From NCBI GenBank assembly GCA_964429275.1, contig CAYSBJ010000002.1:282459-346458 (forward strand): a stretch of DNA of 64,000 nucleotides, in the 5' to 3' direction. Source of the DNA: an uncultured Pseudomonadota bacterium (lineage in GTDB: Bacteria > Babelota > Babeliae > Babelales > JAUPTZ01). The first letter of the stretch is position 1; every line of letters starts with the position of its first letter. Below, piece by piece: positions 6,891 to 27,429 of the stretch. Under the pieces are notes generated by a model. That model saw only the letters and a list, made by a program, of their open reading frames with translations. It was not told the origin of the DNA and made no database searches. Made by a program: the position numbers and the translations under genes.

Positions 6891-7217
6891 TGTATAAAGC
6901 CTTTTATATCGCTACCATTCCAGGCAGCGGACATACAAAGCAACGGGTTTTTATAGCGTATATGCAATCACAGGATTGTATGGTAGCGAAATACGAGCAC
7001 AAATGCAATGGTGCAAAAAAGGTTTTTTGCGATGCAGCGCTGCAATTGTCCCAATACGAGGCACGTTCGCTATTCCTGCGGAGCTGTTTTTTCGAGTACC
7101 CCTTGAGGGATCAGACTCTCTAGCCGACGCCAAAGCTATGGCTGAAGAAGTTGCGTCCCGAGCAGTGAGCCCAAAGAAAAATACTCCAAGCAGGGACAAA
7201 ACAGTCAATAACAAAAC

Positions 7218-8267
7218 CTAAGACACAACCCGTACGCGTCCACGTACCGCTTCCAACGCTGGGTCAGCATTAATCTTTGCATTAATTTCATCAAAATTTA
7301 CCGACAGCCCGAGCTCCACCGCACGTTTTTTATTAATAACAAGCTCTCTCGTTGAGCCAAGAGAAATTACCGGCAGTGTTGCAGGATTTTTATGATGGAA
7401 AAGAATTTGGACAACCTGATCAAAACCAGCCTCTGCGATATAGCGAAGCTCACTGGCGTAAACAATCAATACATTTTCTTTTAAGGCTGACATAGCTCCA
7501 CTAAAGTACCCAGTATTATATCGCTCTGCCAACTTAGCAAGACCAGCAAATTGCATATCATTCAACGCATCTCCTTCAACGGTCATTACAATATCATGTC
7601 CCAACAACAGGCCTTCAACTAGCGCTAGAGATTCGAATAGAGATCCAACCGGTAAAAGCGTTACGCTTACACCTTTTGACTCTAAATAATCTTTAGTTTT
7701 TTCAGCCTTATTTACAATTTCTTTGGCAGCATCATACGGAAAATAAAAAGGTAATAAAACTGATTTGGTATGAGGAAATGTTGTATACAGCAATCGCGCA
7801 GGTACGGAATCTTCAAAGGATACGGTTATGACCCCCGTTACAGCGCCTCCCGGCTGCTCAAGTGATTCTATCAACTCAAGTTCCACTGGATTTTGTACAC
7901 CAACAAATACAATCGGCACAAGGCTCTTCCGTTTACGTGCAAGATTAATAAGAGTTTGAGAAAGCATTCGCCCAACAACAACAATACAATCAGCAGGGAG
8001 AGAAAGTACTTCATCACATGTTATAGTAACAGCTGATGTATCAGATAAATTGGGAATAGTCATCGCGTTAACTTCCACCTTTCCGCCTAACCACGATTTC
8101 GCCGTCTTTAAAAAGGCATCCTGCACTGCCTCATGAAAAGCAGTGTGGGACGCACTCACGAACAACACTTTCCGTGGCGACACATGCCCCGCATGCCAAT
8201 AATACGCAATAAGGGCTACAGCCCCCAGTACAATAATTGCGCTAAAAACATAGCCCTTCTTGCTCAT
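7218..8267 (-). CDS. membrane-anchored ABC-type substrate-binding-like protein (COG2984 / PF04392-like), copy A
   Basis: Motif IVFVGVQNPVELELIESLEQPGGAVTGV matches the V-x-DP-V...PGGN-V-TGV core of the family as I remember it. N-terminal anchor MSKKGYVFSAIIVLGAVALIAYYW. Start set at 8267 by analogy with the paralogue at 9292..10353. It shares one base with the upstream stop (TAATG). Confidence 0.75.
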   Translation of the reverse strand: MSKKGYVFSAIIVLGAVALIAYYWHAGHVSPRKVLFVSASHTAFHEAVQDAFLKTAKSWLGGKVEVNAMTIPNLSDTSAVTITCDEVLSLPADCIVVVGRMLSQTLINLARKRKSLVPIVFVGVQNPVELELIESLEQPGGAVTGVITVSFEDSVPARLLYTTFPHTKSVLLPFYFPYDAAKEIVNKAEKTKDYLESKGVSVTLLPVGSLFESLALVEGLLLGHDIVMTVEGDALNDMQFAGLAKLAERYNTGYFSGAMSALKENVLIVYASELRYIAEAGFDQVVQILFHHKNPATLPVISLGSTRELVINKKRAVELGLSVNFDEINAKINADPALEAVRGRVRVVS

Positions 8268-9257
8268 TAAACACCTCTGTCTATAGGACAATTAACCCAT
8301 TTTTTAATTGCAATAACATCTTCTGCTTTTTCAAAAAGCGCGATTGCTTCTTCAGGAAAGCCAATCATACGTAATATTGTGATATTAGCAAAAAAGACGC
8401 GTTCATCAGGAATAACTTTTACCGGAATATCACCAAGTGGCACCCCATCTACCCAATGCGTAATGAGCGTATCACGCAACGCCATTGCTGCTAAGTGCAG
8501 CTCGCAACCGAAAGCAAAAGCGGCGCCGGTATACATAGAGGAAAGAGTATCCGCACATAGCATCGCATCACGCTCAAAGGCAAAATACGCAGTTTCAGCA
8601 TACGCATCTGGAATGGCACTCTCCATAATGAGAATAACATCATGCTTTCTAAGCCGATCCTTCAAGGCTTTTTCCAACTCGATCTTAGTCATGCGTCCCT
8701 GACTGAAAATTAGAATTGGTTCGACTTCAATACCATAGGGCCTAAAAAATTCTGCTATCTCAGCCGCTTGTTCATGAAGCGGGTCATAGTCACCCATTGC
8801 AATGTAGGGAACAATGATTCGCTTAATATACTGCGCAGCAATTGCAAGTTTTTCTGCTACTGCTGTATTTGACGCTACTTCAGGAATAACTGCCGTCATA
8901 TCGGGACCAGGTGATTCTAAAGAATCAATCAATTTGTGAACCAATGGATCACGTACTGCCGTAAAAATAATCTTACCTCGCCCAATCTCCTGACATACTT
9001 GCTTTGAAAAAACGCTACACCGTAGGCCAATGGGTACCAAGACATCATACGGGTCCGCCATGTTAATTGATTCCGTTATTTTTTTTACGCATCGCTTCTT
9101 GCGTCAACTCAACGTTAACGTACGTAATATTGAAATAAAAATCATGCCCCATAACACGTCGCACTGTATCGGCATACGATCTATGAAGTTCGTTACCGAG
9201 GCCGAGCAGCAAAGCTACTCGGCACGGTCGTTTAGGTTTTGTTAACATGGTTTTCAT
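8267..9257 (-). pseudogene. PF04392-like cytoplasmic-type paralogue, split by a stop plus frameshift at about 9059-9065
   Basis: The track ORFs 9063..9257 (64 aa) and 8267..9061 (264 aa) together align end to end with the intact 330-aa paralogue 10353..11345. Compare MKTMLTKPKRPCRVALLLGL... with MTMLTKPKRPCRVALLLGL..., and ADPYDVLVPIGLRCSV with SDPYDVFVPVGLRCSV. At the junction the intact copy reads ATC AAT TTG TCT GAT CCA, whereas this copy reads ATC AAT TAA C ATG GCG GAC CCG. That is a 4-nt length difference that creates a TAA and a frame change. Confidence 0.65.
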
Positions 9258-9291
9258 AGGAGATTCCTAACACATAGCATTATCAACATTT

Positions 9292-10353
9292 TCACACAAC
9301 CCGTACGCGTCCCCGTACCGACTCCAGCGTTGGGTCGGCGTTAATCTTTGCGTTAATTTCATCAAGATCGACTGGGAGTCCAATTTCTGCAGCACGTTTT
9401 TTGTTGATGATAAACTCACGGGTTGAGCTAAGAAATATTACCGGCATTGTGCTTGGATGTTTATGTTCGTATAAAATTTGTCGCACTTGTTCAAAGGCGG
9501 CCTCTGCCACATAGCGAAATGAAGTTGCATAGACACACAAGGCATTTTCATTCAACGCAGCGGCAGCGCCGGCAAAATAGCCTATCCCATGGCGCTCAGC
9601 GAGGTGGGCAAGAGCCGGCGCATAGACGTCATTGCAGGCATCAGTCTCAACGGTCACAAGCATATCATGACCATTGAGCACACCTTCAACTCGCTTAATA
9701 ATATCCGTCAAGGCATCTATTTCAACAATTGCTACAAAAATGCCCCGCCCCTCTAGGCCTTTTTTAATGCCTTGCATTCTACGCGCAACATCATCAACGT
9801 TATCGCTTAGCATATACATTGGCAGAAGTACCGACTTTATCTGAGGAAAAGCAGAATGGAGCAATCCTGGATATTGGCATAAATCTGATACCAACGACGT
9901 TGCTCCCGTTACCATGCCTCCCGGTCGGTGAACAGATTCAACCAAACCCAGCTCTACTGGGGCCGCAACACCAATAAATACAATAGGTTTCATACTTTTT
10001 CTTTTGATCGCAAGGGATATCAAACTACGCGATATCGCAGTACCTACAACCACTATACAATCAGTCGGTAATGATAAAGCAGACTCGCAAATGGCCGTTG
10101 TCTTTATGGCATCACCGGGGTCCGCCACAAAAATATCTTGTACATCAGACCTGCATCCACGGTTCTGGGCAACAGCATTCAGAAAAAACTTTCGTATATC
10201 CTGATGAGTGGGTATAGCACTGCTACTTACCAGTAAGATTCTATATGGACGCCCATATTGAAAGTTTACATAGCCGGTATAGCGAGACCCAAAAGCTATC
10301 AACCCCAACGCAAAAACAACACTAGCAATATAAAGATAGCCTTTCTTACTCAT
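9292..10353 (-). CDS. membrane-anchored ABC-type substrate-binding-like protein (PF04392-like), copy B
   Basis: Paralogue of 7218..8267 along its full length. The C-termini match closely: INAKINADPTLESVRGRVRVV versus INAKINADPALEAVRGRVRVVS. Core motif IVFIGVAAPVELGLVESVHRPGGMVTGA. TAATG overlap with the upstream gene at 10353. Confidence 0.75.
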   Translation of the reverse strand: MSKKGYLYIASVVFALGLIAFGSRYTGYVNFQYGRPYRILLVSSSAIPTHQDIRKFFLNAVAQNRGCRSDVQDIFVADPGDAIKTTAICESALSLPTDCIVVVGTAISRSLISLAIKRKSMKPIVFIGVAAPVELGLVESVHRPGGMVTGATSLVSDLCQYPGLLHSAFPQIKSVLLPMYMLSDNVDDVARRMQGIKKGLEGRGIFVAIVEIDALTDIIKRVEGVLNGHDMLVTVETDACNDVYAPALAHLAERHGIGYFAGAAAALNENALCVYATSFRYVAEAAFEQVRQILYEHKHPSTMPVIFLSSTREFIINKKRAAEIGLPVDLDEINAKINADPTLESVRGRVRVV

Positions 10354-12827: not shown

Positions 12828-14738
12828 ATGTGTAACCACCCTTCCATCCACGTCACCAGCATTTTGCTGGCCCTCTGTGCCCTTGTACACTGTGGTGCCG
12901 CAACCAAAAATGTCTTAGTACAAAACAGCAGCCCGCATGAGATGTTTGGCGCTATTTATCAAACTACCAAATCGTATGGGTTGCGCATGGGAGAGATAAC
13001 TCTCCTCAAGCCAAATGCCGAAACCACCCTCAAGATGCCAAACGCCAATTTTTTCAAGAAACGCATGCTCTACATCGACTCACGCAAAGAAAATTTGCCC
13101 CAGAAGCTCGACTTTGAAAACCCCACTGTTTTTTTTGCTACCGCCCCGGCCAATCTCAACTTTGGCCGTCCAACCAAACTTATATACCTTGAAAGCGCAC
13201 GTGGACCTGAAATTATCCCAGCCAACAGCAAAGCGGAAGAGGAAATCCGGGAAGAATTACGCAAAAGCATCGCCGAAGAATCGGAGCATTATGGCACCGT
13301 TGCCAGAGTCACCAGCACTAAAGAGACGCTTTGTCCGGATGAGGCAACCTACCTCAACGAGCGCCGCAAAATAACGAGAGCCACCATAAACACACTACTC
13401 AAAAAAGAAATTAATGTCGCATATGTGCCCAATATCACTCTCTGTATAAGCGGTGGTGGGTTTCGCGCAATGCTTGCATCACTTGGTGCCCTTCGTGGTC
13501 TTGAAGAAATTGGGGTATGGGGAACGATCGATTATGTTGCTAGCCTTTCCGGCGGTTCCTGGGCGCTCATTCCGTGGATACAAAGTAAAAAATCACTGAC
13601 CGATTACAGTGATTTTGTTGCCAACCACATTGCGCAGCAAACTGAAGAAAAGCTTATTAAAAATTCGCTCTATGATTTTAATACGCTCCGCCACGTCAAA
13701 GGCTTGTTTGGCAATAGCGCCGGACTTACTGATCTGTATAGCCTCGTCCTTTCCAAGCGCCTACTTCAGCCACTCAAAGACAAACATCTTTCAATCCATT
13801 TTTCTGAACTTGCTAAAAAGATCCACCCGTCCCAGCATCCCTACCCACTGTGTAGCGCTGCAATGCCATATCAAAAAAAGCTGAAGAGTAAATACGACTG
13901 GGTTACCATGTCGCCCTGGAACATTGAGCTTGCAAAAACCGGCCTGAGCATCCCTACATGGGCATTTATGCGCCACTTCATGAATGGCAACTCTATTGAC
14001 GCTACTCCTGAGCCGTGGCTTGGCTACTTGATGGGTATTTGGGGATCAGCATTTAGCATAAGTATGCAAGAAATTTTGCTCCACACCCACAACAATAATC
14101 CAGAATTTGCCACGATCGTGCCACGTTCTTGGATAAAATCACAACTCGTGCGCAAGTGGCTTGGCACTAAACATTGCACCGCGCTTGTACCAAACTTTGT
14201 GTATGGCATGCCAGGAATTCCTCATAATTATAAGAGCTCCATGCCACTTGTTGATGCCGGCCACTACTGCAATCTGCCAGTACCACCGTTCCTTCACCCA
14301 CAACGTAATCCAGAACTCATCATCATGCTTCACAGTAGCATCAACGATATCGACGCCGAAAAAACATTGCGCAAAACATTTAAACTTCTTCGCAAAAAAT
14401 ACCCAGCCATCGCTATCGATGCTAAGGAAGCATTTAGCAAACCGGTCGTCTATTGGCCATCATCGGACGCAAAAACGCCAAGTGTTATCCACATTGGCCT
14501 GTATAAGAATGAAAATTTCAGCACAACGTACGACCCACGCACAACAGCAGAAACAAAGACGTTCAACTTCTGGTACACCACAGCACAAGCACAACAGCTC
14601 ATTGGGCTGCTGAAGCAAACGATTATCGACCACAAAGAGTTGTTTCTGATGGCAATTGAAAATGCAGTAGAAAAAAAACAAAAGGAGACAGGTACATTGG
14701 AATGGTTGAGTAGTAACGCGAAAGCGTTGTTCAGTTAA
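12828..14738 (+). CDS. secreted cytosolic-phospholipase-A2-like lipase (PLA2_B / cPLA2 catalytic domain-like)
   Basis: CISGGGFRAMLASLGALRGL (GGGxR oxyanion motif). ASLSGGSWA (GxSGxS nucleophile). MPLVDAGHYCNLPVPPFLHPQRNPELIIMLHSS resembles the cPLA2-alpha Asp region DSGLTFNLPYPLILRPQRGVDLIISFDFS as I recall it. N-terminal signal-peptide-like SILLALCALVHCGAA. Confidence 0.75.
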   Translation: MCNHPSIHVTSILLALCALVHCGAATKNVLVQNSSPHEMFGAIYQTTKSYGLRMGEITLLKPNAETTLKMPNANFFKKRMLYIDSRKENLPQKLDFENPTVFFATAPANLNFGRPTKLIYLESARGPEIIPANSKAEEEIREELRKSIAEESEHYGTVARVTSTKETLCPDEATYLNERRKITRATINTLLKKEINVAYVPNITLCISGGGFRAMLASLGALRGLEEIGVWGTIDYVASLSGGSWALIPWIQSKKSLTDYSDFVANHIAQQTEEKLIKNSLYDFNTLRHVKGLFGNSAGLTDLYSLVLSKRLLQPLKDKHLSIHFSELAKKIHPSQHPYPLCSAAMPYQKKLKSKYDWVTMSPWNIELAKTGLSIPTWAFMRHFMNGNSIDATPEPWLGYLMGIWGSAFSISMQEILLHTHNNNPEFATIVPRSWIKSQLVRKWLGTKHCTALVPNFVYGMPGIPHNYKSSMPLVDAGHYCNLPVPPFLHPQRNPELIIMLHSSINDIDAEKTLRKTFKLLRKKYPAIAIDAKEAFSKPVVYWPSSDAKTPSVIHIGLYKNENFSTTYDPRTTAETKTFNFWYTTAQAQQLIGLLKQTIIDHKELFLMAIENAVEKKQKETGTLEWLSSNAKALFS

Positions 14739-17181: not shown

Positions 17182-17277
17182 GCCCTCAGGATACCAGATC
17201 TCTTAATTATTGCCACTGGGCCGCCGACCCGCATCTAAACGCATTGAGACACATCTAATAGAGCTTTACAGTCTACA

Positions 17278-17493
17278 TGGATTGCTTCCAACTACGCCTT
17301 GCTCGTTGTCGCAATGACGCGCTTTTAGGCGCGTCTGTAGGCAAAGCTACTTCTGGTACTCTTTTTCTATTGACGGCGCTTAGCCGTCTTTGCGAGGAAC
17401 GGAGTGACGCGGCAATCCATCTTGATGTGCTTGTCTTTATCCTGGATTGCTCCGCCGTCGCACCTTCTCACAATGACGCGTAATCATGCGTCT
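17278..17493. repeat. three copies of a short REP/MITE-like element in +,-,+ orientation
   Basis: Each copy starts TGGATTGC and ends TC(G/A)CAA(T/A)GACG(C/G) followed by a small hairpin: GACGCGC/GCGCGTC at 17316-17335, GACGGC/GCCGTC at 17372-17388, and GACGC/GCGTC at 17476-17493. Copies lie at about 17278-17335 (+), 17372-17419 (-) and 17443-17493 (+). Confidence 0.6.
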
Positions 17494-17640
17494 ATAATCA
17501 CTGCATCCTACAAAGGCCGCTCTGCACAACTCTTTTTACCAATTACTGAGCCGTCCATAGACTAGTTAAACCAATATCTCATATTATAAGATATTCTTAT
17601 TCATGCATTACAACTCTTTATTAGCAAGGAAAGGCACGCG

Positions 17641-19275
17641 GTGTCACATTTGCATTCATTCTTTATTGGCCTCTTGCTCGTTGCAAACCCCGTAGTGGGT
17701 ATGGATGAGACAACACATCCTGTCGATGCCGATGCGATCGCAACCGCGATCAACCAAACACTCGACAACGCAGGCGCGCCAGGCCGAATTAATGCGGACA
17801 GCGCACTCGAAAAACTTTTGAATAACGACCGACTTGATACTCAATCCCGCCAAAAAATACGCAATGCCATAGGCGCATACCCCCTTCCTATTTCACGGCC
17901 GGCAACCCAAAAACTTTTATTCGATCTCGTTATCTTTGGCAAAAAACCACTCGACTCAACCGGGACAATTCAGCAGGCTGTTGCGAATGCTGCCGCGCAG
18001 AACTTTGACTTTGGCATCTACCGCACTTCAAATATACCAGTCTATTTGAGTACAATCGTAGACGCACAACTACAAAAAGAGTCTTTGATGGGAGGAAAAA
18101 AGAACGAAGAAAATAGCATGCAGCTGTATAGTATGAAAAGAAAACTCGAGGAGGATGAAAACCTTCTCGAGCCGCTCGATTTGAGCCAACCTGACGGAGT
18201 CATACAGGAAAATACCCAAAAACAATTGCTCGATCTCGCCTATGACTGCGTCCTCTATACAGATAAGCAGGTGAACAGTGAACTTCTGAGAGACTTCAAC
18301 CAGGCCTTAAACGCTGAACGCGAAAAAAGTAGACTTCAAGCCAACGTACAAGGACGGCTTGGGCAAAAGGTAGCTTCAATTAAAGACTTAACTGAAAAGC
18401 GGCTAAAAAGAATCATAGAACAAGAGATGCTCTCCGCCACAGAACGGGGCTCAGCCCTCATTTTGTATAAAATGTCGCAACTACTAGATGAAAAGAGTGA
18501 CCAGAAAGTAAATTTTGAGGAGGTATTCCATAGAATGCCGCCACTCACAATAAACGAATATATAAGTACCGTCGCCCCTCCTGGGTATATAGAAAAAATG
18601 CAATCGCTCAAACGTGCTCAGACCAGTGCCAAGAAAGCGAAGGAGGTCACTCCACGAGAAGCGCCCCGCGCCAAAGCACCTCCACCGCTAAAATACGATT
18701 CGCCACGCATCAATGCAAGCCCGAACCCTAACGCCAAGCCAAAAATAACAACGCCCGATTCTCTCGACTTCAGTAGCGCTTCTGCCAGCAACGCCAGTAG
18801 CCCAAATAACACTGTCAGCCCTACAATACCAGTCGGCAATCTTCTCGGTAACGGCACAGACGACAGCCCGCAAGCAATTACCTCCTATTCTCCGGAAAAA
18901 CCAGCCAATAAGTCTGCCCTGCCACTCATTGGTTTTGGTGGAACCGCCGTTGCCTTCGCATCGGCAATCCTCTACCTCCAGCGCCAAGAACGCAAAATAA
19001 ACACACTCTTAAAAAGTATCATAGATACAAAAGGCCAATCCCTTTATGAACGCGTTATAAATACAAACGCACAACGGGGCGGTAGCATGCAACAAGAAAA
19101 TATGGCAACGATCGTAAGAGACTTTAATCTTTCGCAAGAGAAGATGTCAGAGGCGTTGAGACTTTTTAAAAAACACAGGAATAACCGTGTCTTACGCAAT
19201 CACATGATTATCCCCTTCGCCATTGGCCTTCTCGGGTCACTTGCAACAGGCCATGCCTTCTTTAAGCAAGATTAG
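17641..19275 (+). CDS. secreted/membrane protein, family A member 1 (544 aa) with conserved C-terminal two-helix module
   Basis: GTG start with AAGGAAAGG upstream. Signal-peptide-like LLLVANPVVGMDE. C-terminal module (18910..19275) is homologous to those of the next two genes. Confidence 0.75.
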   Translation: MSHLHSFFIGLLLVANPVVGMDETTHPVDADAIATAINQTLDNAGAPGRINADSALEKLLNNDRLDTQSRQKIRNAIGAYPLPISRPATQKLLFDLVIFGKKPLDSTGTIQQAVANAAAQNFDFGIYRTSNIPVYLSTIVDAQLQKESLMGGKKNEENSMQLYSMKRKLEEDENLLEPLDLSQPDGVIQENTQKQLLDLAYDCVLYTDKQVNSELLRDFNQALNAEREKSRLQANVQGRLGQKVASIKDLTEKRLKRIIEQEMLSATERGSALILYKMSQLLDEKSDQKVNFEEVFHRMPPLTINEYISTVAPPGYIEKMQSLKRAQTSAKKAKEVTPREAPRAKAPPPLKYDSPRINASPNPNAKPKITTPDSLDFSSASASNASSPNNTVSPTIPVGNLLGNGTDDSPQAITSYSPEKPANKSALPLIGFGGTAVAFASAILYLQRQERKINTLLKSIIDTKGQSLYERVINTNAQRGGSMQQENMATIVRDFNLSQEKMSEALRLFKKHRNNRVLRNHMIIPFAIGLLGSLATGHAFFKQD

Positions 19276-19426
19276 TACCCCCGCAACTGTTGAAATAAAA
19301 AAAGCCATTCTACCGGGCTCTGCCCCCCCGCGTTCGGCTCATCCATGGACTATTTAAACGTATCATCTATACTATAAGGCATTATTGCTCGCAATTTAAC
19401 TACTTAGTTACCCACGAAAGGCGCAG

Positions 19427-22400
19427 ATGTTGTATCTTCTTTCCCTTCTTTTTACTTTCTCTCTAATTGTCAGCCCGGTACTGGGTATGGATGAAGGGGC
19501 GTCGACTGTGAGCAGTGCAGAACTTCCTGCGACTACTGGCGATGTTGTAGAGCCGAATGAAAAGAACGAAGCTATCAAAACAACTGAAGAAATAGGCGCT
19601 CCCGAGGAAGAAGCTGCTGATCTTGCATCAGCTGCTACTTCCAACCCTACAGATGAACCTGCGGTACCAGCCCATAACACAGCAGCAACCGCCCCGATGA
19701 GAGATGCTGCCAATGCAGTTGAAAAAAAGCATGCAATCCCAGCGAAACAAAGAGACTTGGCAGCCTTGCATGCTCAGTACAACCGAAATGTCAACGCGTT
19801 TTTAGAAAAGCATGTTATTTCAAAACTCAATGGTGAGAAAAAACACATGCCCCTGATATTACCTCCCTACATAGATGAATTTAAGCATGAAGCCAATGAA
19901 ATTAATGCTAAAAATGCTAAAGATGCTAAAGATGCTGACAGAGTCTTTGAAATACACGGCGCTATCCGCAAAATCATGCGATTCTTTCACGCACAGGGGG
20001 ACAAGGATTTTACTCCTGAAGAACTCAGGACATACTACACAAAGAACAACGATGTCGCTAAGGAATGGACCAAAGAAGACGCGAATGCATTTCGTAAGAT
20101 TATTCAGATGCTATTGGACCACGAAAAAGTACTTCTGCCTAAGATGCTTGAGCTCTTTATCCAGAATAAATTTGAACGCTATAAAGTTGCACTGACTCCA
20201 AAGGAAATACTCGCGTCGGCTATAGCGAACTTAAGCGGCCAACAAAAATTTCTGGCTAGGTACTGCCAATTGTGGACAAAATTAGCCAACACCTCCGATT
20301 TCGTTCGCGCAATTGCGCCCTCAACAACAAGTGTACAAGAGGTCGCCAACATCCTCATACCGCCGCTGAAAGAAATCCTTGGATCTCCGTATCCAACTCT
20401 TGATGCCATACAAAAAACAGAGGCTGAAGTGAAGGCTTTCGTCACTCAGTTATCGAAGAGGAAAGAAGCAGCCGCTCAAGCTCAGCAACAGGCAATGTCA
20501 GCAATACGAAAAACTCTCGCAGAAGAAACAAAATCTATGGGAACTGTCACTCAGCAACAACTAAAAGGAATAATGGAACGCGCGATACTCGAGGCCGACA
20601 ACGAGACAGAACGGAAACTCCTGTATAAAATGTGGCAACCATTAGATGAAACCAGCAACGAAATCGCAGATTACAAAGCCAGTCTCAATACCCTCCACCT
20701 GCTCACGGTGTATGAATACGAAGGCCACCCTCCCCTCGCCGGCTATACAGAAAAAATACAATCTCTTACAGACGCTGCTGCACGCAGACAAGAAGATTTG
20801 CTTCGGGCCAGAGAAGAATCATTAAATAAAGCGGCTGATGAAATCATTGCCGAGTTTGCCGATGCACATCCTGACCTCTCAGCCCAAGAGCGATTAGAAG
20901 AAGGGCTGGTAAGCGTGACAACGAAAAGTAGCGACCCTAATTACCTCTTGCAAAAGAATGAACGCACTATGGCCGCCCGTAAGTATATCCACATGCTCCA
21001 AAATCAAATGGAAAAGCTTGCTACGACCCCATTCATTCCGCTCGGTAATTTGTATAATCAACTAACCAACAGCTTTTTTCTAACAAAAGAAGACCAAGTA
21101 TTCATCGATCAAGTGACTACACAAGTCACAAAACGACAAGAAGAAATGAAGAAGCTTGATGAATTTAACAGGCGTTCGAACGATAGGCTTTCCTCGTTTG
21201 TCGGAGAAAATGAAATAGACCCACAAAGCTACGGCGCGGCGGTGGAGTACTACATACAAAAGTATCTAGATGAAAACACGACCAATGCAGAAGATGTAGC
21301 CGTCATGTTTAAGCTTTTGGAGATTCAAGCAAAACTAAAACAAGATGATTACCAAGGATCAATGGATCCTAATGAAATAGCCGAGAGAATTTCTGGTGAT
21401 GCGCTAGCAATTATTATTTCTCCGGAGGAGGCAGGTGAATTCAGGCGTCGGTACCTGGCTAACTTTTCTACTAAATTCCGTGAATTCCTCACCAATAAAG
21501 CAACAGGGAAATTCTATTCCACAACGGACATAAATGAGAGCCACGACGAACAAATTCTCAAGGTGTTGAAAAAACAAGTAACTGCTCCAGCCTTACCAAT
21601 TGCCCCTAGAACAGCAACATCACTTGATGACACAGACGACAGTAAAGGCACTCCGCCAGTATCACACAAGTCGCCGTCGCCGAAACTCGCCGATAAACAA
21701 ATTTCCAGGACCCCTTCACCGAAAACAGCAGTTCAAAGGCCAACGTCACCGGAAAAAGGACCCCGTAGCCTTCTGAGTAACGCCTATCTCAGCACAGCAA
21801 CATCACTTGATGACACAGACGACAGTGAAGACAATGCGTCAGCATTACACAGGTCGCCGTCGCCAAAACCCGCCAATAAACAGATTTCCAGGACCCCTTC
21901 GCCGCTGATGCCACAGCAATCAAATCGGCATCAAAGCCCCCATCGACGATCGCCAACTCCACAACCAAATACGGCAGATATGTCTGATCAATCACCACTG
22001 ATTGATTCGGACATAGACGCACCAGCGCTAGATATACCAGCACCACTTAGAACAACAACTCCAAGGCCAGCATCGCCGGAAAAAACAATTAATACACCAA
22101 AGCATATCTCACCGCCATTGGCACAATCGCCTAAACCAACCGACGATGAAATGTTGCCAGACATAGATACTGATGCTGATATCAGCTCGACCGCGCCGCA
22201 AGCAAGCCTTCTGGGTAACAGCGGTCAGGGTAGCACGCCACCACTCGCAGGAGCTCCGGCAGCACCCGCAAAACCAAAGAATAAATCCGTCTTGCCGCTT
22301 GCTGCCTTTGGCGGAACTACCGCCGCATCAGCTATCGGATTCCTGCATTTACAACGCCAAGACCGCAAGATAACGGCGTTCTTGAATAGCATCGTCAATG

Positions 22401-22645
22401 CATCAGGTCAAACGCTCGGGCAACGTATTGCACAAGCTGAGGCGCAATCGAACGGCATACAAGAAAAAGAGATGCGTACGATCATGAATAGCTTTAATCT
22501 TTCACCAAAACAAACAATCGCCGTTACAGCGGCTCTGGAAAAGCAAAAAAGCATTCGAACCAAGCGGAGCGGCATGGTTATACCGCTGGTTGTTGGCCTT
22601 CTCGGCTCACTCGTGACCGGGCATGAGTATTTTAAGAAAGACTAA
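19427..22645 (+). CDS. secreted/membrane protein, family A member 2 (1072 aa) with S/T-P-rich repeat region
   Basis: Signal-peptide-like SLIVSPVLGMDE. Shares LLYKMWQPLDE...AGYTEKIQSL with member 1 (LILYKMSQLLDE...PGYIEKMQSL). C-terminal module at 22283..22645. Confidence 0.8.
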   Translation: MLYLLSLLFTFSLIVSPVLGMDEGASTVSSAELPATTGDVVEPNEKNEAIKTTEEIGAPEEEAADLASAATSNPTDEPAVPAHNTAATAPMRDAANAVEKKHAIPAKQRDLAALHAQYNRNVNAFLEKHVISKLNGEKKHMPLILPPYIDEFKHEANEINAKNAKDAKDADRVFEIHGAIRKIMRFFHAQGDKDFTPEELRTYYTKNNDVAKEWTKEDANAFRKIIQMLLDHEKVLLPKMLELFIQNKFERYKVALTPKEILASAIANLSGQQKFLARYCQLWTKLANTSDFVRAIAPSTTSVQEVANILIPPLKEILGSPYPTLDAIQKTEAEVKAFVTQLSKRKEAAAQAQQQAMSAIRKTLAEETKSMGTVTQQQLKGIMERAILEADNETERKLLYKMWQPLDETSNEIADYKASLNTLHLLTVYEYEGHPPLAGYTEKIQSLTDAAARRQEDLLRAREESLNKAADEIIAEFADAHPDLSAQERLEEGLVSVTTKSSDPNYLLQKNERTMAARKYIHMLQNQMEKLATTPFIPLGNLYNQLTNSFFLTKEDQVFIDQVTTQVTKRQEEMKKLDEFNRRSNDRLSSFVGENEIDPQSYGAAVEYYIQKYLDENTTNAEDVAVMFKLLEIQAKLKQDDYQGSMDPNEIAERISGDALAIIISPEEAGEFRRRYLANFSTKFREFLTNKATGKFYSTTDINESHDEQILKVLKKQVTAPALPIAPRTATSLDDTDDSKGTPPVSHKSPSPKLADKQISRTPSPKTAVQRPTSPEKGPRSLLSNAYLSTATSLDDTDDSEDNASALHRSPSPKPANKQISRTPSPLMPQQSNRHQSPHRRSPTPQPNTADMSDQSPLIDSDIDAPALDIPAPLRTTTPRPASPEKTINTPKHISPPLAQSPKPTDDEMLPDIDTDADISSTAPQASLLGNSGQGSTPPLAGAPAAPAKPKNKSVLPLAAFGGTTAASAIGFLHLQRQDRKITAFLNSIVNASGQTLGQRIAQAEAQSNGIQEKEMRTIMNSFNLSPKQTIAVTAALEKQKSIRTKRSGMVIPLVVGLLGSLVTGHEYFKKD
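21611..21904 (+). repeat. imperfect 183-nt (61-aa) tandem duplication inside the 1072-aa gene
   Basis: An identical 33-nt core ACAGCAACATCACTTGATGACACAGACGACAGT occurs at 21611 and 21794. ATTTCCAGGACCCCTTC occurs at 21701 and 21884. Both units encode TATSLDDTDDS...SPSPK..NKQISRTPSP. Confidence 0.85.
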
Positions 22646-22676
22646 ATAGTTTTTTATTGTTTAGAGAAGTTTTTAT

Positions 22677-24605
22677 ATGTTACATCCACGGCTACTTCTT
22701 TTATGCCTTCTTACCAGCCCGTTATCAATATTTTCAGCTACAAATCGGGATACTGTTAACACCCAACTAATCTTTTCATCCTCTGCTCCAAACATTTCCA
22801 AGACTGCAGCAGAGGAAGAAGGGGAAAAAAGGGCGCTGGCGATGGTAAAAGAAGTTGTTAAGCAGATTTGCACAGGCAAGCGGATGGAGCAAGCTGCCAT
22901 ATACAGAGAAGTAGTAAGCCAATTAGAGACCATACCGGACGCTTTTGGCACAGAATGTCGGAGGGTTGCAAAATTCTACCTTGAGCCAGAATCAGCCACA
23001 ATACCTAATCAAACAATATATACTTTGAATGATGCGATAGTTCTTGTACAAAGCAAAATAGCTTCCTCAAACAACCACTCAACGGCAATAGCCACAAAGA
23101 TACTAAAAAAAGCGTACGATCAGGAGTATCTATTATCTGCAGATGAGATCTACAAGAAAGTCAATGAGCAGCTACTCGGAAAAATTCTAAGCGGAAGCCA
23201 ACTCAGCACCATCAAGCATGAATGCTTCAATGCAATTAAGCACTGCTTTGAACCCAGAACAGTCTACGCATCAACTCTGTGCAGCAAAGACGATGTATTA
23301 GAGCTTCTGCCTGATACATCACCAGAAGAAAAAATACGGGACGCTATTCAATCGGTGGGTAGAAGAGGTGCGATACAACACGGTCGATTCTACCAGCTTG
23401 TTTATCGCCAAGTGCACCCAGATAAAATAAAGCCTACGCGATTTGCCAATGCATGCTCACAGCTCTTAGCGCGACTTAAAGCACCAACAGGTGAAGAGAG
23501 GGCGATATTGAGCACTAATCAAGCACTCGCACTTGTAAGCACAACAACTATAAGCGAAGAGGATGAACAGCTTAACAATCTCATTAATACTAGCTTTTTA
23601 GCAGTTGTTACTACGAGCCATACTGCAGGCGTAAGGGCAACGCTCAAAGAATGGCTCAGCATCTTAGCTCGAGAATTAGAAGAAGGGCAGCCGCTGGCAA
23701 GTGCAATGGAGAAACAAATTACAGACCTAGAAAGCAAAAAAAGCAGATCACCAGCGAACCTACACACTAGCTTTAACACAGCTATTAAGGAGGCAAAAAA
23801 AGCCCTTTTAGGCATGCGCATAAAGCTTAGAAAAATACTGCCACTGTACCCAGAAGAAGACACTGCAATACTCACTTCATGCGACGATGTGCACGAAGCC
23901 ATAAAGCCTCTTCTCTACGACGCGCGCAGCACTCTTTATACCAAAGATCTTGCTCAATCCGTCCAACCCTTATCTAGGGAAGAGAAGGCACAAATCTTCG
24001 CTTACTTAGTAAACAAAGAATTGCGAGATGTTACTAAAATGCTTAAAGAGCAACCAGCTTATGCAAGAAAAAAGTTCATGGAAAATGTATATCCAACCCT
24101 CAATGCTATAGCCAGAAAGGATCCGCAACAGGTAGAATATATAAACCTGGTCGTTGAGCGAATTAAAGCAGCAGAAAAATCAGGCGAATTGCAAGCACTA
24201 TTGAACGACTCACCAGCAACCACACTAAACGAGTCGACACGTTCAATAACCACTACGAATAAATTAAAATTTCCGTTTGGGGCAATCAACCTAATCTCTA
24301 CAGTATACTTGGGGCATTTAACACTTAAGGAGCGCAAACTTGCTTCATTTATTCAGGGCATTCCGCTCAATAAAAATGGCCAATCTATTTCAGAACGATT
24401 AACTACTTTAACCAAGCAAGATGGATCCATAGAAGCAAGTTCTATACGAAAGATTCGAGAAGAATTCGGTTTTTCATCAAAAGAAATGCACAACGTCAGG
24501 CGAGCTATCAAAACAAAAGAGACTATTGCCACCAGAAAAAAAGCGGCCCTCATTGCACTGACAATAGGACTTATTGGCGTTTTTGCGGTTAAAAGACGTC
24601 AATAA
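22677..24605 (+). CDS. secreted/membrane protein, family A member 3 (642 aa)
   Basis: Signal-peptide-like LLLLCLLTSPLSIFSA. The C-terminal module (24261..24605) aligns with members 1 and 2: hydrophobic helix, (K/Q)ER(K)(L/I), about 80 aa, then a terminal helix (I/L)GL(I/L)G. Confidence 0.75.
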   Translation: MLHPRLLLLCLLTSPLSIFSATNRDTVNTQLIFSSSAPNISKTAAEEEGEKRALAMVKEVVKQICTGKRMEQAAIYREVVSQLETIPDAFGTECRRVAKFYLEPESATIPNQTIYTLNDAIVLVQSKIASSNNHSTAIATKILKKAYDQEYLLSADEIYKKVNEQLLGKILSGSQLSTIKHECFNAIKHCFEPRTVYASTLCSKDDVLELLPDTSPEEKIRDAIQSVGRRGAIQHGRFYQLVYRQVHPDKIKPTRFANACSQLLARLKAPTGEERAILSTNQALALVSTTTISEEDEQLNNLINTSFLAVVTTSHTAGVRATLKEWLSILARELEEGQPLASAMEKQITDLESKKSRSPANLHTSFNTAIKEAKKALLGMRIKLRKILPLYPEEDTAILTSCDDVHEAIKPLLYDARSTLYTKDLAQSVQPLSREEKAQIFAYLVNKELRDVTKMLKEQPAYARKKFMENVYPTLNAIARKDPQQVEYINLVVERIKAAEKSGELQALLNDSPATTLNESTRSITTTNKLKFPFGAINLISTVYLGHLTLKERKLASFIQGIPLNKNGQSISERLTTLTKQDGSIEASSIRKIREEFGFSSKEMHNVRRAIKTKETIATRKKAALIALTIGLIGVFAVKRRQ

Positions 24606-24708
24606 AAGTTATAATCTTATCTTGCAATCACAAACACATGAGCATGTTTCATGACGCGGCCAAAACATTATGCATAAATTGTGAGGTAAAAAGCAAGGGC
24701 ACGAAGTA

Positions 24709-27429
24709 TCAACCTCGTTGCTCTACCGACACTATTGAGCCCGCAGCTCCCTTTTCCACAATAAAGTGTACGGGGAAATTTTCTTTGAAGGAGGGAAGAT
24801 GAGTCACCACAATGATCTTAGCGAAATCTTCCTGCACGGCATATAACGCCTGCATCAGCTGCGCCAACCCTTCTTCATCTTGAGAGCCAAAGCCTTCGTC
24901 GATAATAAGAATTTGAAGATGGGCACCAGCCCGCTTGGCAAGCAACTTAGAAATAGCAATGCGTAATGCAAAATCTATGCGAAACGCTTCACCACCGGAA
25001 AACATCTCGTACGGCCGCACTCCCATTACGTCAGCGATCTTAATATCAAGAGTTTCACGCGCACCGCCACGCTTGAGATCACGAAGAGACTCGATAAAGA
25101 CGTGGGCCTGATTGCTACTAAGCCGCGACAATAATTCATTGGCTTCAAATTCAATTTCAGGGATCGCTTGTTCAATAAGCAAAGCCTGAATACCATTTTT
25201 ACTCCAGGCTTGCGCCAGCGTAACACAGTCGTATTGACGAGCCTCCAGAGTCGCCACCTCTGCTACGCGCAACGCCATTTGCTTTTTCTGCTCGTCAAGT
25301 CGCACACGTTGTGCCGTTATGTGTCCTTGTTTTTTAACCGCATCCTCTTTTTGCTGCCGCAGCACTGCTCCATTCTTTTCGACATCGGCCAACGCCATTG
25401 TTAACCGTACGCGCTCTGCCTCGGCCGGCACCATAGCGCGAAGAGCTTCCTCTTTTTCTGCCAGCATGCGCGTTGATTCCTTCAGTTGGCGCCGCTGAGC
25501 GTCAATATCTGCCCGCTGCGCCGCCAACTGAACACGTCGCTCATCCAACCGCTCTATTTCTACTGCCTGCTTTTCAGCGGCGGCAATTTCCTGCTCCAGG
25601 AACACATGCTGCTGCTCGTCATACGCACTCGTTGACCGTTGCAACGCAATTTCTTTTTCCTTGTGCCGCAGTTGAACCAATTCAGGATCGTGCACCACGA
25701 GCTCGCGAGCATCGAATTCAAATTTACTTTTTTCCGTCCCCACTGAAGTCAACCGTTCTTGTAATGCTGTCGCCTCGCTGGCCGCTTTGGCAAGTGCCTC
25801 ATCAACCGACATCAGCCGCACCTGCAAATGCGCCTGGCGAGCCGCCCGCACTTCTTGCTGGCCACAGGCGGTTTGCAATGCACTTTGAAGGGCCTCTCCT
25901 TCCTTGACTCGGGCATGATCTTGGATCAACAATGCCTTGAGCGCCTCTAAAACTCGCTGTAATCGCGTCGCTTGATGAGCCACAATAGCGGCCTCTTTGT
26001 GAAGCTTTTCTTGCAGAAACTGCTTTCGTTTAGACGACAGCATTTGCTCACATAAGGGGCAGCTCGGACTTTCATCTCCCACCATTGCCGCTTTATGGCT
26101 CAGCTCTTGCTGCTGTCCCGACAACCACCGCATGCGAGGAACGTAAGTATTGTAAAAAGTCTTTCGCTTCTCGAAACGGTTCCGAACAACAGTATATGCA
26201 GCCATCTCTTCAGTTAGGCTGTCCACATCGCGCCCTCCTTCTTCTTGCTGGCGGTTGATAATTGCGATTTCAGCAAGAAGCTGCTCTCGCTGAGTACGCA
26301 GTTGTTTTTCAAAGCCACGTGCCTGCTGACAGGCAAGGTCGGCCACTTGTAATTTTTGCATCAGTTCATGCTGCGCAATGGCCAACTCTTGCTGCAGTTT
26401 TTGCTCCCGCATAAAAATACTTTTCTCTACCGCCATTGCCTGCTGCTGCAACACTAACATCTCACGCTGCTGTCCACGTGCCACCATCTCTTGGGCCCGT
26501 AGTTGTGAAAGCCGCTCTTGAATTTGCCCCCGGCTCAACAGCCCGCGGATCGCTGCCACATCGCGCCGGTAGGCAGCCACGATACCTCCCCATGCGCGCC
26601 GCTGCGCATTCAACGCCGCATACTCCTGCGCAAGACTTTCGGTGCGCAGCTGATAGTCTCGTTGTTTGGCAGTATAGTGTGCGTACGATTCCTGAAGAAT
26701 AGCCCGATCTTTTTCTTGAATGGCAATTTCATTCATGCATCGCACAACATCAGCCGTAACAATCTGCTCCTGCAATACGACTGCATCATAAGTGGCAAGT
26801 TCCTGTTCGTCACAAAGGATAAGCTCCTTTAAAACTGTTATTTGCGCACTATAGTCTCGGGCCCGCTCAAGCGCACGAGTTTGCAACGCATCGTATTTAT
26901 CAATGCCCAGAATAGCGGTCAGGATCTTTTTTCGGTCTTTGGGCGACTTTTGAGAAAATTCATTGGCATTGCCCTGACGTAAATAAGCAGAATTCACATA
27001 CGTATCATACTCAAGGCCTAGAATACGATTGATAACCTCTTGCGTCTGACGAAGGGTTTTGTCGGTCAGGCTGTGAAACAGCTCAGCCTGCGCATCATAA
27101 ACGCTAATATCAAGCGTTACATACGGCTTATTCCCCGGACGCATGGTTAACTCGCGCCGTACGCGGTAAAGTCGGGCATCCACATAAAATTCAAACATCA
27201 CCATCATCGAGCGGGCCCCCAAGCGCAACAAGCCCTCGTCAGGCTTTGCAGTTCCAGTGGTTTTACGAGCTTGCCCCCACAATGCCCAGGTCATGGCATC
27301 AAGCAGGGCCGATTTGCCATGGCCATTGCGACCGGAGAGGCAGATAAGGCTGTAGCCTTCAAATGAGATGAGTTGGGGAGTTGCCCCGTAGCTCAGAAAG
27401 TTGTAAAGCGTTATTTGATGCGGGATCAT
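24709..27429 (-). CDS. sbcC: SbcC/Rad50-family ATPase (906 aa)
   Basis: Walker A GRNGHGKSALLDA. Long coiled-coil with zinc-hook CPLC (SPSCPLCEQ). Signature and Walker B FSGGEAFRIDFAL...LQILIIDEGFGSQD. Confidence 0.85.
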   Translation of the reverse strand: MIPHQITLYNFLSYGATPQLISFEGYSLICLSGRNGHGKSALLDAMTWALWGQARKTTGTAKPDEGLLRLGARSMMVMFEFYVDARLYRVRRELTMRPGNKPYVTLDISVYDAQAELFHSLTDKTLRQTQEVINRILGLEYDTYVNSAYLRQGNANEFSQKSPKDRKKILTAILGIDKYDALQTRALERARDYSAQITVLKELILCDEQELATYDAVVLQEQIVTADVVRCMNEIAIQEKDRAILQESYAHYTAKQRDYQLRTESLAQEYAALNAQRRAWGGIVAAYRRDVAAIRGLLSRGQIQERLSQLRAQEMVARGQQREMLVLQQQAMAVEKSIFMREQKLQQELAIAQHELMQKLQVADLACQQARGFEKQLRTQREQLLAEIAIINRQQEEGGRDVDSLTEEMAAYTVVRNRFEKRKTFYNTYVPRMRWLSGQQQELSHKAAMVGDESPSCPLCEQMLSSKRKQFLQEKLHKEAAIVAHQATRLQRVLEALKALLIQDHARVKEGEALQSALQTACGQQEVRAARQAHLQVRLMSVDEALAKAASEATALQERLTSVGTEKSKFEFDARELVVHDPELVQLRHKEKEIALQRSTSAYDEQQHVFLEQEIAAAEKQAVEIERLDERRVQLAAQRADIDAQRRQLKESTRMLAEKEEALRAMVPAEAERVRLTMALADVEKNGAVLRQQKEDAVKKQGHITAQRVRLDEQKKQMALRVAEVATLEARQYDCVTLAQAWSKNGIQALLIEQAIPEIEFEANELLSRLSSNQAHVFIESLRDLKRGGARETLDIKIADVMGVRPYEMFSGGEAFRIDFALRIAISKLLAKRAGAHLQILIIDEGFGSQDEEGLAQLMQALYAVQEDFAKIIVVTHLPSFKENFPVHFIVEKGAAGSIVSVEQRG

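Follow-up and report, generated by a model that had tools for sequence, protein, structure and literature searches.

A three-gene family in a Dependentiae genome with signal-peptide-like N termini and a shared C-terminal two-helix module

Three adjoining genes and the module they share

The window, a stretch of 64,000 nucleotides to which all positions given here refer, comes from the 1.2-Mb MAG of an uncultured, host-dependent member of the Dependentiae. It contains three intact open reading frames (ORFs) that adjoin one another on the forward strand and encode proteins of 544, 1072, and 642 amino acids (aa), which we call P1, P2, and P3, in that order. With their stop codons, the genes occupy positions 17641 to 19275 (P1, which has a GTG start codon with AAGGAAAGG as its Shine-Dalgarno sequence), 19427 to 22645 (P2), and 22677 to 24605 (P3) in the ORF listing, exactly as in the preliminary description of this DNA. 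Promoter and terminator scans returned nothing above the shuffled expectation.

As had also been noted earlier, all three proteins begin with a hydrophobic, signal-peptide-like segment (aa 1 to 20). On the forward strand, this segment lies at 17641 to 17700 in P1, where it ends in NPVVG before MDE; at 19427 to 19486 in P2, where it ends in SPVLG before MDE; and at 22677 to 22736 in P3, where it ends in SPLSIFS before ATNRD. The (V/L)GMDE motif described for two of the proteins therefore marks the end of their signal-like N termini, and no other ORF of 100 aa or more in the genome contains VG or LG followed by MDE. The N termini of the family are hydrophobic and then acidic, and the n-regions of the signal peptides are nearly devoid of Lys and Arg. 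In R1, the counterpart of P1 in a sister species, the corresponding segment is MSHLYSFLIGLFLLANPVAG followed by IDE, and this conservation at the protein level indicates that the P1 segment is coding. We infer that the signal peptide of P1 is cleaved.

At their C termini, P1, P2, and P3 share a module of ∼125 aa that consists of helix 1, a basic helical loop of 72 to 75 aa, and helix 2, which ends 4 to 7 residues before the C terminus. In P1, helix 1 (aa 427 to 446, LPLIGFGGTAVAFASAILYL; positions 18919 to 18978) reaches a Kyte-Doolittle maximum of 1.84 and is helical in the structural model, the 75-aa loop (18979 to 19203) has a net charge of +8 and carries the conserved motifs QRQERK, GQSLYER, and FNLS, and helix 2 (aa 522 to 537, MIIPFAIGLLGSLATG) is followed by the 7-aa tail HAFFKQD (helix and tail, 19204 to 19272). 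The same hydrophobicity, charge, and conservation features place helix 1 of P2 at aa 956 to 975 (22292 to 22351), its 74-aa loop (net charge, +7) at 22352 to 22573, and its helix 2 (aa 1050 to 1065) with the tail HEYFKKD at 22574 to 22642. In P3, helix 1 (aa 532 to 550, FPFGAINLISTVYLGHLTL; 24270 to 24326) is followed by a 72-aa loop with a net charge of +9 (24327 to 24542) and by helix 2 (aa 623 to 638) with the tail KRRQ (24543 to 24602); all of these features are on the forward strand. The arrangement of helix, loop, and terminal helix proposed earlier stands, except that in P3 the hydrophobicity of helix 1 is marginal (Kyte-Doolittle maximum, 1.18), so that this helix is missed at a cutoff of 1.3 and seen only at 1.15.

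Pairwise BLASTP comparisons gave E values of 1e-32 for P1 and P2 (37% identity over 220 aa), 4e-13 for P2 and P3, and 5e-8 for P1 and P3, so that the proposed three-gene family consists of true paralogues and the common C-terminal module, put at ∼120 aa in the preliminary description, aligns where it had been placed. Twenty module columns are invariant among P1, P2, and P3, and 7 remain so once four relatives are added. Relative to the sister species, the module has a dN/dS of 0.21 in P2 and 0.35 in P1 at a dS of ∼0.45 to 0.49, while the flanking yhhQ genes have a dS of 0.36 to 0.44 and a dN/dS of 0.11 to 0.13. Since the module dS resembles that of yhhQ and its dN/dS is 0.21 to 0.35, the modules are orthologous and constrained by purifying selection. 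Judged from the sequences, the similarity of the module among the three proteins is far above chance and maintained by selection. The predicted structure of the P1 module (pLDDT, ∼70) is a long helical hairpin with two short helices as a cap, in which helix 1 packs on helix 2 over its full length.

These features define the family as a signal-like N terminus combined with helix 1, [QK]R[QK][ED]RK, GQ[ST][LI]..R, F.[LF]S, a basic run, and a helix 2 that contains GL.G and lies no more than 7 aa from the C terminus. All of them are present in P1, P2, P3, and three relatives (R1, R2, and P0004); a fourth relative, P0003, is a C-terminal fragment. The glycines of GL.G are invariant in all seven sequences.

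Passengers, relatives, and a variable genomic island

The proteins are built alike: a Sec-type signal peptide is followed by a variable passenger that is all-alpha, then by a disordered linker rich in S, T, and P, and finally by the conserved C-terminal module. One passenger block is common to P1 (aa 236 to 326; 18346 to 18618, forward strand) and P2 (aa 360 to 450; 20504 to 20776, forward strand), with a BLASTP E value of 4e-11, and it is the sole part of the full-length P1 AlphaFold model with a pLDDT of 70 to 83. The full-length model as a whole has a pLDDT of only 41.7 and was thus unfit for a fold search. The P1 linker (∼aa 336 to 423; 18646 to 18909, forward strand) is of low complexity and rich in S, T, P, and N, and it is predicted to be disordered, as aa 335 to 429 have a pLDDT below 50 and no secondary structure in the model; linker length in the family ranges from ∼15 to ∼250 aa. 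The passengers diverge far more than the module and were found in only two (G000 and G004) of 61 genomes. P2 and its counterpart R2 are alignable at both ends only, with 32% identity over the N-terminal ∼220 aa, 57% over the C-terminal ∼260 aa, and 80% in the module, and their middles are unshared, in keeping with the earlier remark that the N-terminal parts are variable.

R1 (528 aa), the P1 orthologue, is 70% identical to P1 in its N part and 62 to 67% identical in its C part. R2 (1092 aa; NCBI MDQ5940870.1, annotated as a hypothetical protein) comes from the same sister species, and P0004 (628 aa), on a 6.1-kb metagenomic contig, is a full-length relative of P3 (32 to 35% identity; E value, 9e-91). 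Among 1.84 billion representative proteins, a profile search matched four, all of this family, and a scan of genome contigs found one locus, in the sister MAG. Two scans of metagenome contigs gave no family match, and word-based homologue searches with P3 or with an alignment of P3 and P0004 returned P3 alone. When the module HMM was run against the C-terminal tails of all 883 ORFs of the genome, nothing beyond P1, P2, and P3 fell below an E value of 0.1. The profile check suggested in the preliminary description, against databases and the genome itself, thus returned family members only.

Comparison of congeners places the genes in a variable island (17182 to 24708) between yhhQ, which ends at 17181, and sbcC, which ends at 24709. 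The island holds three family genes here, two in changed order in the sister species, where R2 and R1 share the interval with an AAA_14/DUF4143 gene, and none in a third, 98%-complete congener (G003), in which 71 bp separates sbcC and yhhQ. The three genes are best explained as old paralogues on a gain-and-loss island, the family being confined to a few close Dependentiae.

The preliminary description recognized no known family, and our searches agree. Pfam and NCBIfam scans of P1, P2, and P3 gave nothing above threshold, PADLOC gave no match to them at an E value of ≤0.01, the best hit of a PDB sequence profile search had an E value of 0.26, and Foldseek comparison of the module model with the PDB gave only generic helical hairpins (best E value, 1.6). 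The predicted two-helix C-terminal anchor is previously undescribed, and the proteins form a genuine orphan family of very narrow distribution.

Predicted topology and competing explanations

We assigned topology from hydrophobicity windows and charge counts. In the six full-length sequences, net charge ranges from +3 to +9 in the loop and from +4 to +6 in the flank that precedes helix 2 (six of six); the tail has a net charge of 0 in members of the P1 and P2 lineages (four of six) and of +2 to +3 in the P3 lineage. By the positive-inside rule, the basic loop argues for a hairpin that is inserted in the inner membrane of the bacterium and whose predicted orientation leaves the loop on the cytoplasmic side and the passenger on the outer side; the basic tail weakens this charge argument for the P3 lineage. 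The inverted topology, with a cytoplasmic passenger, was rejected, as it would leave the most basic segments outside.

On the best reading, which we hold with moderate confidence, these variable proteins are exported by the Sec route and stay anchored in the inner membrane of the bacterium, facing outward. The signal peptide would bring the passenger through SecYEG and then be removed by signal peptidase I; helix 1 and the following QRQ(E/D)RK would act as a stop-transfer sequence, keeping the basic helical loop of 72 to 75 aa in the bacterial cytoplasm; and helix 2 would insert after translation in the manner of a tail anchor, leaving 4 to 7 residues outside. The two Gly-rich helices would pack as a hairpin, and the outcome would be a fast-evolving variable domain on a flexible stalk at the outer face of the inner membrane. 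A reduced outer membrane has been reported in Babeliales, so the passenger may sit either in the periplasm or at the cell-host interface, and the conserved loop (GQ[ST]L..R and F.[LF]S) may serve as a cytoplasmic docking or oligomerization piece. Rather than catalysis, the proteins most likely serve for display at the envelope or in host contact. In favor of this reading, the genome has signal peptidase I and YidC, and it also carries three secretins; sortase and the T4SS and T3SS markers VirB4 and FHIPEP were not found in it. Members of the phylum typically possess an outer membrane equipped with T2SS secretins (PMC4776705), and signal-peptide-bearing orphans are very common in cultured Dependentiae, making up 44% of the coding sequences of C. 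destructans (PMC6561590). Several points count against the inner-membrane reading: the quick turnover of the passengers and the restriction of the family at genus level are more in character for proteins exposed to the host than for those of the periplasm, a linker range of ∼15 to ∼250 aa speaks against a fixed periplasm-spanning role, the helices are only moderately hydrophobic, and the signal peptides nearly lack n-region Lys and Arg. On a Hessa-type sum, the helices fall between the 44th and 91st percentiles of the polytopic transmembrane segments of the genome, and since helix 1 of P3 and that of P0004 are the weakest, stop-transfer is possibly inefficient.

Those moderately hydrophobic helices, rich in Gly, Ala, Ser, and Thr, would also suit host-membrane effectors, whose helices escape the inner membrane after Sec export, leave through T2SS-like secretins or outer-membrane vesicles, and enter the host or vacuolar membrane as a hairpin, with an outcome similar to that of the chlamydial inclusion membrane (Inc) proteins or the dense-granule proteins of Toxoplasma. 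Vesicle release has been reported in C. destructans (PMC6561590). The fast-evolving, seemingly mosaic passengers of a lineage-restricted family on a variable island, the three secretins, the many eukaryote-like domains of the genome (ankyrin, LRR, and cPLA2-type lipase), and the presence of a signal-peptide-plus-hairpin tether at the N terminus of four proteins that are paralogues of one another all favor this explanation. However, the T3SS marker FHIPEP (PF00771; control genomes were positive) and the T4SS marker VirB4 were not found in the 98%-complete genome, the positive-inside pattern matches insertion into the bacterial inner membrane, and insertion from the vacuole lumen would leave the large passenger luminal. 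We are also unaware of any alpha-helical hairpin membrane protein that is exported by a T2SS. The insertion first suggested for these proteins, into the membrane of a host or a vacuole, was drawn by analogy only, and in view of the Sec-type signal peptides, the missing markers, and the basic loop, we consider it rather unlikely; restriction to the bacterial envelope, named at the time as an outcome that would refute it, appears more likely.

Two further explanations reinterpret the module itself. Helix 2 alone could span the membrane, as in a type I protein, with helix 1 and the loop in the ectodomain and helix 1 perhaps a membrane-interacting or oligomerizing segment. Viral class I fusion proteins offer a loosely similar layout, with an ectodomain, a Gly-rich hydrophobic peptide, a helical region, and a transmembrane segment near the C terminus. 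A helix 1 that is rich in Gly, Ala, and Phe and marginal in P3 (Kyte-Doolittle value, ∼1.2) and P0004 would fit, as would the basic, cytoplasmic-looking tails of the P3 lineage (KRRQ and QRLRH). Yet no part of the protein is more basic than the loop (+3 to +9), four of the six sequences have a neutral tail, the tail measures only 4 to 7 residues, the predicted structure pairs both helices along their whole length, and no heptad or trimer evidence was found, which makes a single anchor very unlikely. Alternatively, a dedicated enzyme might remove the module or its last helix as a cleavable sorting signal, attaching the passenger to the envelope or releasing it. The last helix and its basic or aromatic tail do resemble such a signal, P3 has a weak VPXXXP-CTERM match (E value, 0.12), and the C-terminal end of several unrelated ORFs of the genome is likewise a Gly-rich helix followed by ...Y..K/R. 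That match scores 12.2 bits against a cutoff of 30 and has no equivalent in P1 or P2, a search of the genome for one of the known sorting enzymes, sortase (PF04203), gave no match, and a constrained 125-aa two-helix module with loop motifs is unlike the known one-helix signals of ∼25 to 35 aa. We regard cleavage of this kind as highly improbable.

Comparison with known systems

Like the chlamydial Inc proteins, P1, P2, and P3 come from an obligate intracellular bacterium and combine a two-helix membrane hairpin with a variable, unrelated soluble part. Inc proteins are T3SS substrates with a bilobed motif of two transmembrane helices joined by a short loop, and many mutually unrelated sequences share this one architecture (PMC6717882), as is the case here. 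In contrast to Inc proteins, which lack a Sec signal peptide, have a short turn, and direct both termini to the host cytosol, the present family has Sec-type N termini, a hairpin at the extreme C terminus, a conserved loop of 72 to 75 residues in all six full-length sequences, and no T3SS marker (FHIPEP) in its genome. It is therefore not Inc-like by definition.

Sorting signals (LPXTG/sortase, PEP-CTERM/exosortase, GlyGly-CTERM/rhombosortase, and VPXXXP-CTERM) likewise follow an N-terminal signal peptide and a passenger with a C-terminal helix and a short polar or basic tail, but they have one enzyme-removed helix and a short signature motif in place of two helices and a constrained 75-aa loop; none of P1, P2, and P3 scored above the cutoff of a curated sorting-domain model in NCBIfam or Pfam. 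The nearest precedent for host-membrane insertion is provided by the dense-granule (GRA) proteins of Toxoplasma, also an intracellular parasite, in which a signal peptide is combined with one or more hydrophobic helices that insert in the host-facing membrane after secretion. These proteins belong to a eukaryotic parasite, travel by the ER/Golgi route, and have no known sequence or fold relation to the family, and we know of no such postsecretion insertion mechanism in bacteria. TonB and TolA, as well as C-terminally anchored mycoplasma adhesins, resemble P1, P2, and P3 in having a membrane anchor and a spacer, Pro-rich or of low complexity, by which a folded domain is kept at a distance from the cytoplasmic membrane. 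TonB and TolA differ in being conserved housekeeping proteins with an N-terminal anchor, and the adhesins have one transmembrane segment and a cytoplasmic tail; no homology to any of them was detected in the Pfam, NCBIfam, and PDB sequence searches.

Dependentiae are widespread obligate parasites of protists with hundreds of signal-peptide-bearing orphan genes, and to our knowledge they have neither a T3SS nor a T4SS. In the present genome, at least 25 further ORFs pair a signal peptide with a Gly-rich hairpin, which is C-terminal in ∼8 of them, as in P1, P2, and P3. In at least 15 more, among them the four paralogues mentioned above, the hairpin follows immediately after the signal peptide. 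Because the module HMM matched only the three family genes, these look-alikes are without detectable homology to the family. A signal peptide joined to a Gly-rich, basic-loop hairpin might have evolved in this lineage as a device dedicated to tethering or sorting, a Sec-dependent functional analogue of the Inc system that displays host-directed domains on, or hands them into, a host-facing membrane without a T3SS or T4SS; we think this unlikely. Were the hairpin to serve generally as a tether or delivery signal, the host-interaction proteome of the phylum could be sought by a sequence rule. If the proteins merely reside in the inner membrane, they add another envelope family, specific to one lineage and of modest interest. 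In either case, a constrained membrane module, an exchanged or rapidly rewritten passenger, and an island that differs in three congeners make the family a clean, testable case.

Two other readings were rejected, that of transmembrane effectors of antiphage defense on the PADLOC result for P1 to P3 and that of type V autotransporter or two-partner passengers on the predicted all-helical module and the lack of an autotransporter, TPS, or other Pfam domain. The neighboring SbcC-like ATPase gave the only PADLOC match at the locus, to SMC-type models such as LmuB.

Three neighbouring genes with a common C-terminal module

The three plus-strand genes P1 (17641-19275; 544 aa), P2 (19427-22645; 1072 aa), and P3 (22677-24605; 642 aa) are intact open reading frames (ORFs) at exactly the positions in the preliminary description, with good Shine-Dalgarno sequences for P1 and P2. 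That description had also proposed signal-peptide-like N-termini and a common C-terminal module, and we found both: each protein has a hydrophobic leader segment, and BLASTP was significant for all three pairs (1e-32 for P1/P2, 4e-13 for P2/P3, and 5e-8 for P1/P3), always in the C-terminal module of about 125 aa (helix 1, loop, and helix 2) that follows a large variable passenger region. This likeness is far above chance, confirming the observation. The leader end (V/L)GMDE, noted earlier in two genes, occurs in P1 and P2 and in no other ORF of 100 aa or longer in this genome. The last ~120 residues of each protein hold two more hydrophobic segments, the second of which stops 4 to 7 residues before the C-terminus; in P3, helix 1 is only marginally hydrophobic (Kyte-Doolittle value of about 1.2). 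P1 and P2 also have a second block in common, with P1 residues 236-326 corresponding to P2 residues 360-450 (BLASTP, 4e-11).

The family signal peptides (window 17641-17700, 19427-19486, and 22677-22736) have an n-region almost without Lys or Arg. Among their first 8 residues, P1, P2, their sister-species counterparts R1 and R2, and the P3 relative P0004 have none, and P3 has one. Many other signal peptides of this genome start with MKK or MKR.

Scans of P1 to P3 against Pfam, NCBIfam, and PADLOC gave no significant match; the best one below threshold placed VPXXXP-CTERM on the terminal helix of P3 (12.2 bits versus a cut-off of 30). The best E value in a sequence-profile search of the PDB was 0.26. 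An AlphaFold2 model from a 4-sequence module alignment (pLDDT 70, pTM 0.53) has helices at 14-46, 55-65, 72-80, and 86-130, so the module is predicted to fold as a long helical hairpin with the two short helices as a cap; Foldseek of this model against the PDB returned generic hairpins only (best E, 1.6). The model for full-length P1 is of poor quality (pLDDT 41.7 overall): its passenger is all-alpha, confidence exceeds 70 solely in the block common to P2, and the linker (residues 335-429) is without structure. P1 to P3 form a real orphan family with a narrow distribution, and their C-terminal two-helix module is of a new kind. The known kind to which the family belongs comprises lineage-specific proteins that obligate intracellular bacteria export and tether to a membrane. 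P1 to P3 differ from chlamydial Inc proteins, which have a short inter-helix loop, whereas the family helices are 72 to 75 aa apart, and for which type III secretion is a defining feature that the family does not show (PMC6717882).

Narrow distribution and a variable chromosomal junction

The genome (G000; 1.21 Mb in 8 contigs, 98% complete) contains three module copies only. An hmmsearch of 1.84 billion representatives with the module profile returned four proteins: P0001 (1092 aa), the sister-species counterpart of P2, which NCBI calls a "hypothetical protein"; P0002, which is P3 itself; P0003, a 112-aa fragment; and P0004 (628 aa), related to P3 over its full length at 32 to 35% identity. 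There was one related record among 185,579 species genomes, two metagenome scans for the family found no further members, and among 60 relatives spread over 21 families of the order the module occurs in one congener only (G004). The passengers are as narrowly distributed as the module.

A single chromosomal junction has three states in three congeners. Its order in the window is tgt(-), yhhQ(-), yhhQ(-), P1 to P3(+), sbcC(-), ankyrin(+). In the congener G003, the gap from sbcC to yhhQ is 71 bp with no family gene between, and no family member was found in the rest of the genome (98% complete; yhhQ 70% identical). In the sister species (yhhQ 91 to 92% identical to those of the window), this interval is occupied by R2 (1092 aa), then R1 (528 aa), and then an AAA_14/DUF4143 gene, and there is no P3; the sister locus is present in the samples SRR13076572, SRR13076585, and SRR13076586. 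That ATPase gene (12987-14267, minus strand, of sister-species locus L022) lies between the family genes and sbcC and is missing at the window site, which makes this junction a hot spot of gene gain and loss.

We also compared substitution rates between window genes and the sister species. The flanking yhhQ genes have a dS of 0.36 to 0.44 and a dN/dS of 0.11 to 0.13. For P1, dN/dS is 0.29 in the N-terminal part, 0.42 in the C-terminal part, and 0.35 in the module; the P2 module is 80% identical, with a dS of 0.45 and a dN/dS of 0.21. Over their N-terminal and middle regions, P2 and R2 share just 25 to 40% identity, with an apparent dS of 1.2 to 2.9; codon alignments are untrustworthy at such identity, so we do not claim recombination. 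For this pair, BLASTP aligns ~220 residues at the start and ~260 at the end only, and the passenger may either have been swapped or have diverged past reliable alignment. The modules cluster by orthology (P1/R1, P2/R2/P0003, and P3/P0004), so the three paralogue lineages are older than the species splits and the modules do not evolve in concert.

Hairpin repeats of ~40 nt upstream of P1 (17278-17493) recur elsewhere in the genome (C3:107054-107098, C3:165824-166211, C3:150733-150770, C2:11498-11532, and C1:508791-508818) and so are a dispersed REP-like element, not one specific to the island. The SbcC-like ATPase adjoining the island (24709-27429, minus strand) matches the PADLOC Lamassu protein LmuB over nearly its full length (E, 1.5e-20), which may be mere general SMC/Rad50 likeness. 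The neighbourhood includes ankyrin, LRR, and cPLA2-type lipase genes and is typical of the Dependentiae phylum. The window end cuts off a protein longer than 1791 aa (58627-63999, plus strand), which carries Methyltransf_FA (PF12248; E, 1.5e-28), a mostly eukaryotic domain.

Membrane topology and localisation

Hydrophobicity windows and charge counts were used to examine topology. The inter-helix loop has a net charge of +3 to +9, and the 15-residue flank ahead of helix 2 has one of +4 to +6 in each of the six full-length sequences. Past helix 2, the tail has no net charge in the lineages of P1 and P2 and +2 to +3 in that of P3. Acidic residues (MDE...) follow the N-terminal segments. By the well-established positive-inside rule, the passenger and the short tail would be outside and the loop cytoplasmic; we rejected the inverse topology because it would place the segments with the strongest basic charge outside. 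Both helices are Gly-rich, with GFGG in helix 1 and an invariant GL.G in helix 2, a content that would suit close packing of the hairpin. By a crude Hessa-type sum, they fall in the 44th to 91st percentile of the genome's polytopic transmembrane segments; they are thus moderately hydrophobic, which does not discriminate between the readings below.

We give about an even chance to Sec export followed by retention in the bacterial inner membrane via the C-terminal hairpin. The passenger would then be held on the outer face by a flexible stalk, and the conserved loop would serve for docking or oligomerisation on the cytoplasmic side. Genes for signal peptidase I and YidC are present in G000. Insertion into a host membrane, as the preliminary description proposed, would fit the moderate hydrophobicity of the helices, the quick turnover of the passengers, and the eukaryote-directed gene content, but the charge pattern matches a bacterial membrane and no known type of delivery system was found (VirB4 and FHIPEP were not detected in this 98% complete genome, while control genomes were positive), and we consider it rather unlikely. 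Weaker still are a single-anchor reading, which seems improbable, and a cleavable sorting signal, which we regard as very improbable; no sortase was found in G000. Three secretins are encoded there, and Dependentiae have been described as having a type II secretion system with two gspD copies, and Babeliales a degenerate outer membrane (PMC4776705). In C. destructans, 44% of coding sequences have signal peptides, and its cells seem to release vesicles inside the food vacuole of the host (PMC6561590).

Similar hairpins elsewhere in the genome

A crude hairpin scan, limited to hydrophobicity windows and to the ORFs of G000, so that no enrichment is claimed, identified at least eight more ORFs with the layout of P1 to P3: signal peptide, passenger, low-complexity S/T/P/A/Q-rich linker, Gly-rich helix, helical basic loop of 20 to 80 aa, and a last Gly-rich helix that ends no more than 12 residues before the C-terminus and is often followed by a ...G.Y..K/R tail. 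These include C3:19891-23202 (minus; 1103 aa) and the adjoining C3:19057-19872 (minus; 271 aa), C1:380129-383032 (plus), C1:276776-278629 (minus), C3:84455-85828 (minus), C1:97165-98502 (minus), C2:6825-8159 (plus), and C1:282736-283617 (minus), and they have no detectable homology to the P1-P3 module. A second, larger class of at least 15 ORFs has the hairpin straight after the signal peptide, then a linker and the main domain; this hairpin is Gly/Ala-rich with a basic loop of 15 to 45 aa (for example, ...RWGGAGVAGAGLIVAWRMHKK...). Four paralogues of this class lie in the window (41708-46858, minus) and at least 11 elsewhere in G000, among them C2:22359(-), C3:120524(-), C1:432217(+), C1:354769(+), C3:90583(+), C1:193500(-), C1:178392(-), C1:43110(-), and C1:44914(-). 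The ORFs of this second class likewise have no detectable homology to the P1-P3 module. Together, the two classes suggest that the hairpin tether recurs as a theme across the genome, the P1-P3 family being one sequence-defined instance.

Two neighbouring proteins of G003 (546 and 614 aa; 6636-8276 and 8393-10237 of its locus L019) have a signal-like start, then two hydrophobic segments, and then an Ala/Lys/Glu-rich stretch, suggesting that the tether also occurs in this congener, which is without the P1-P3 family.
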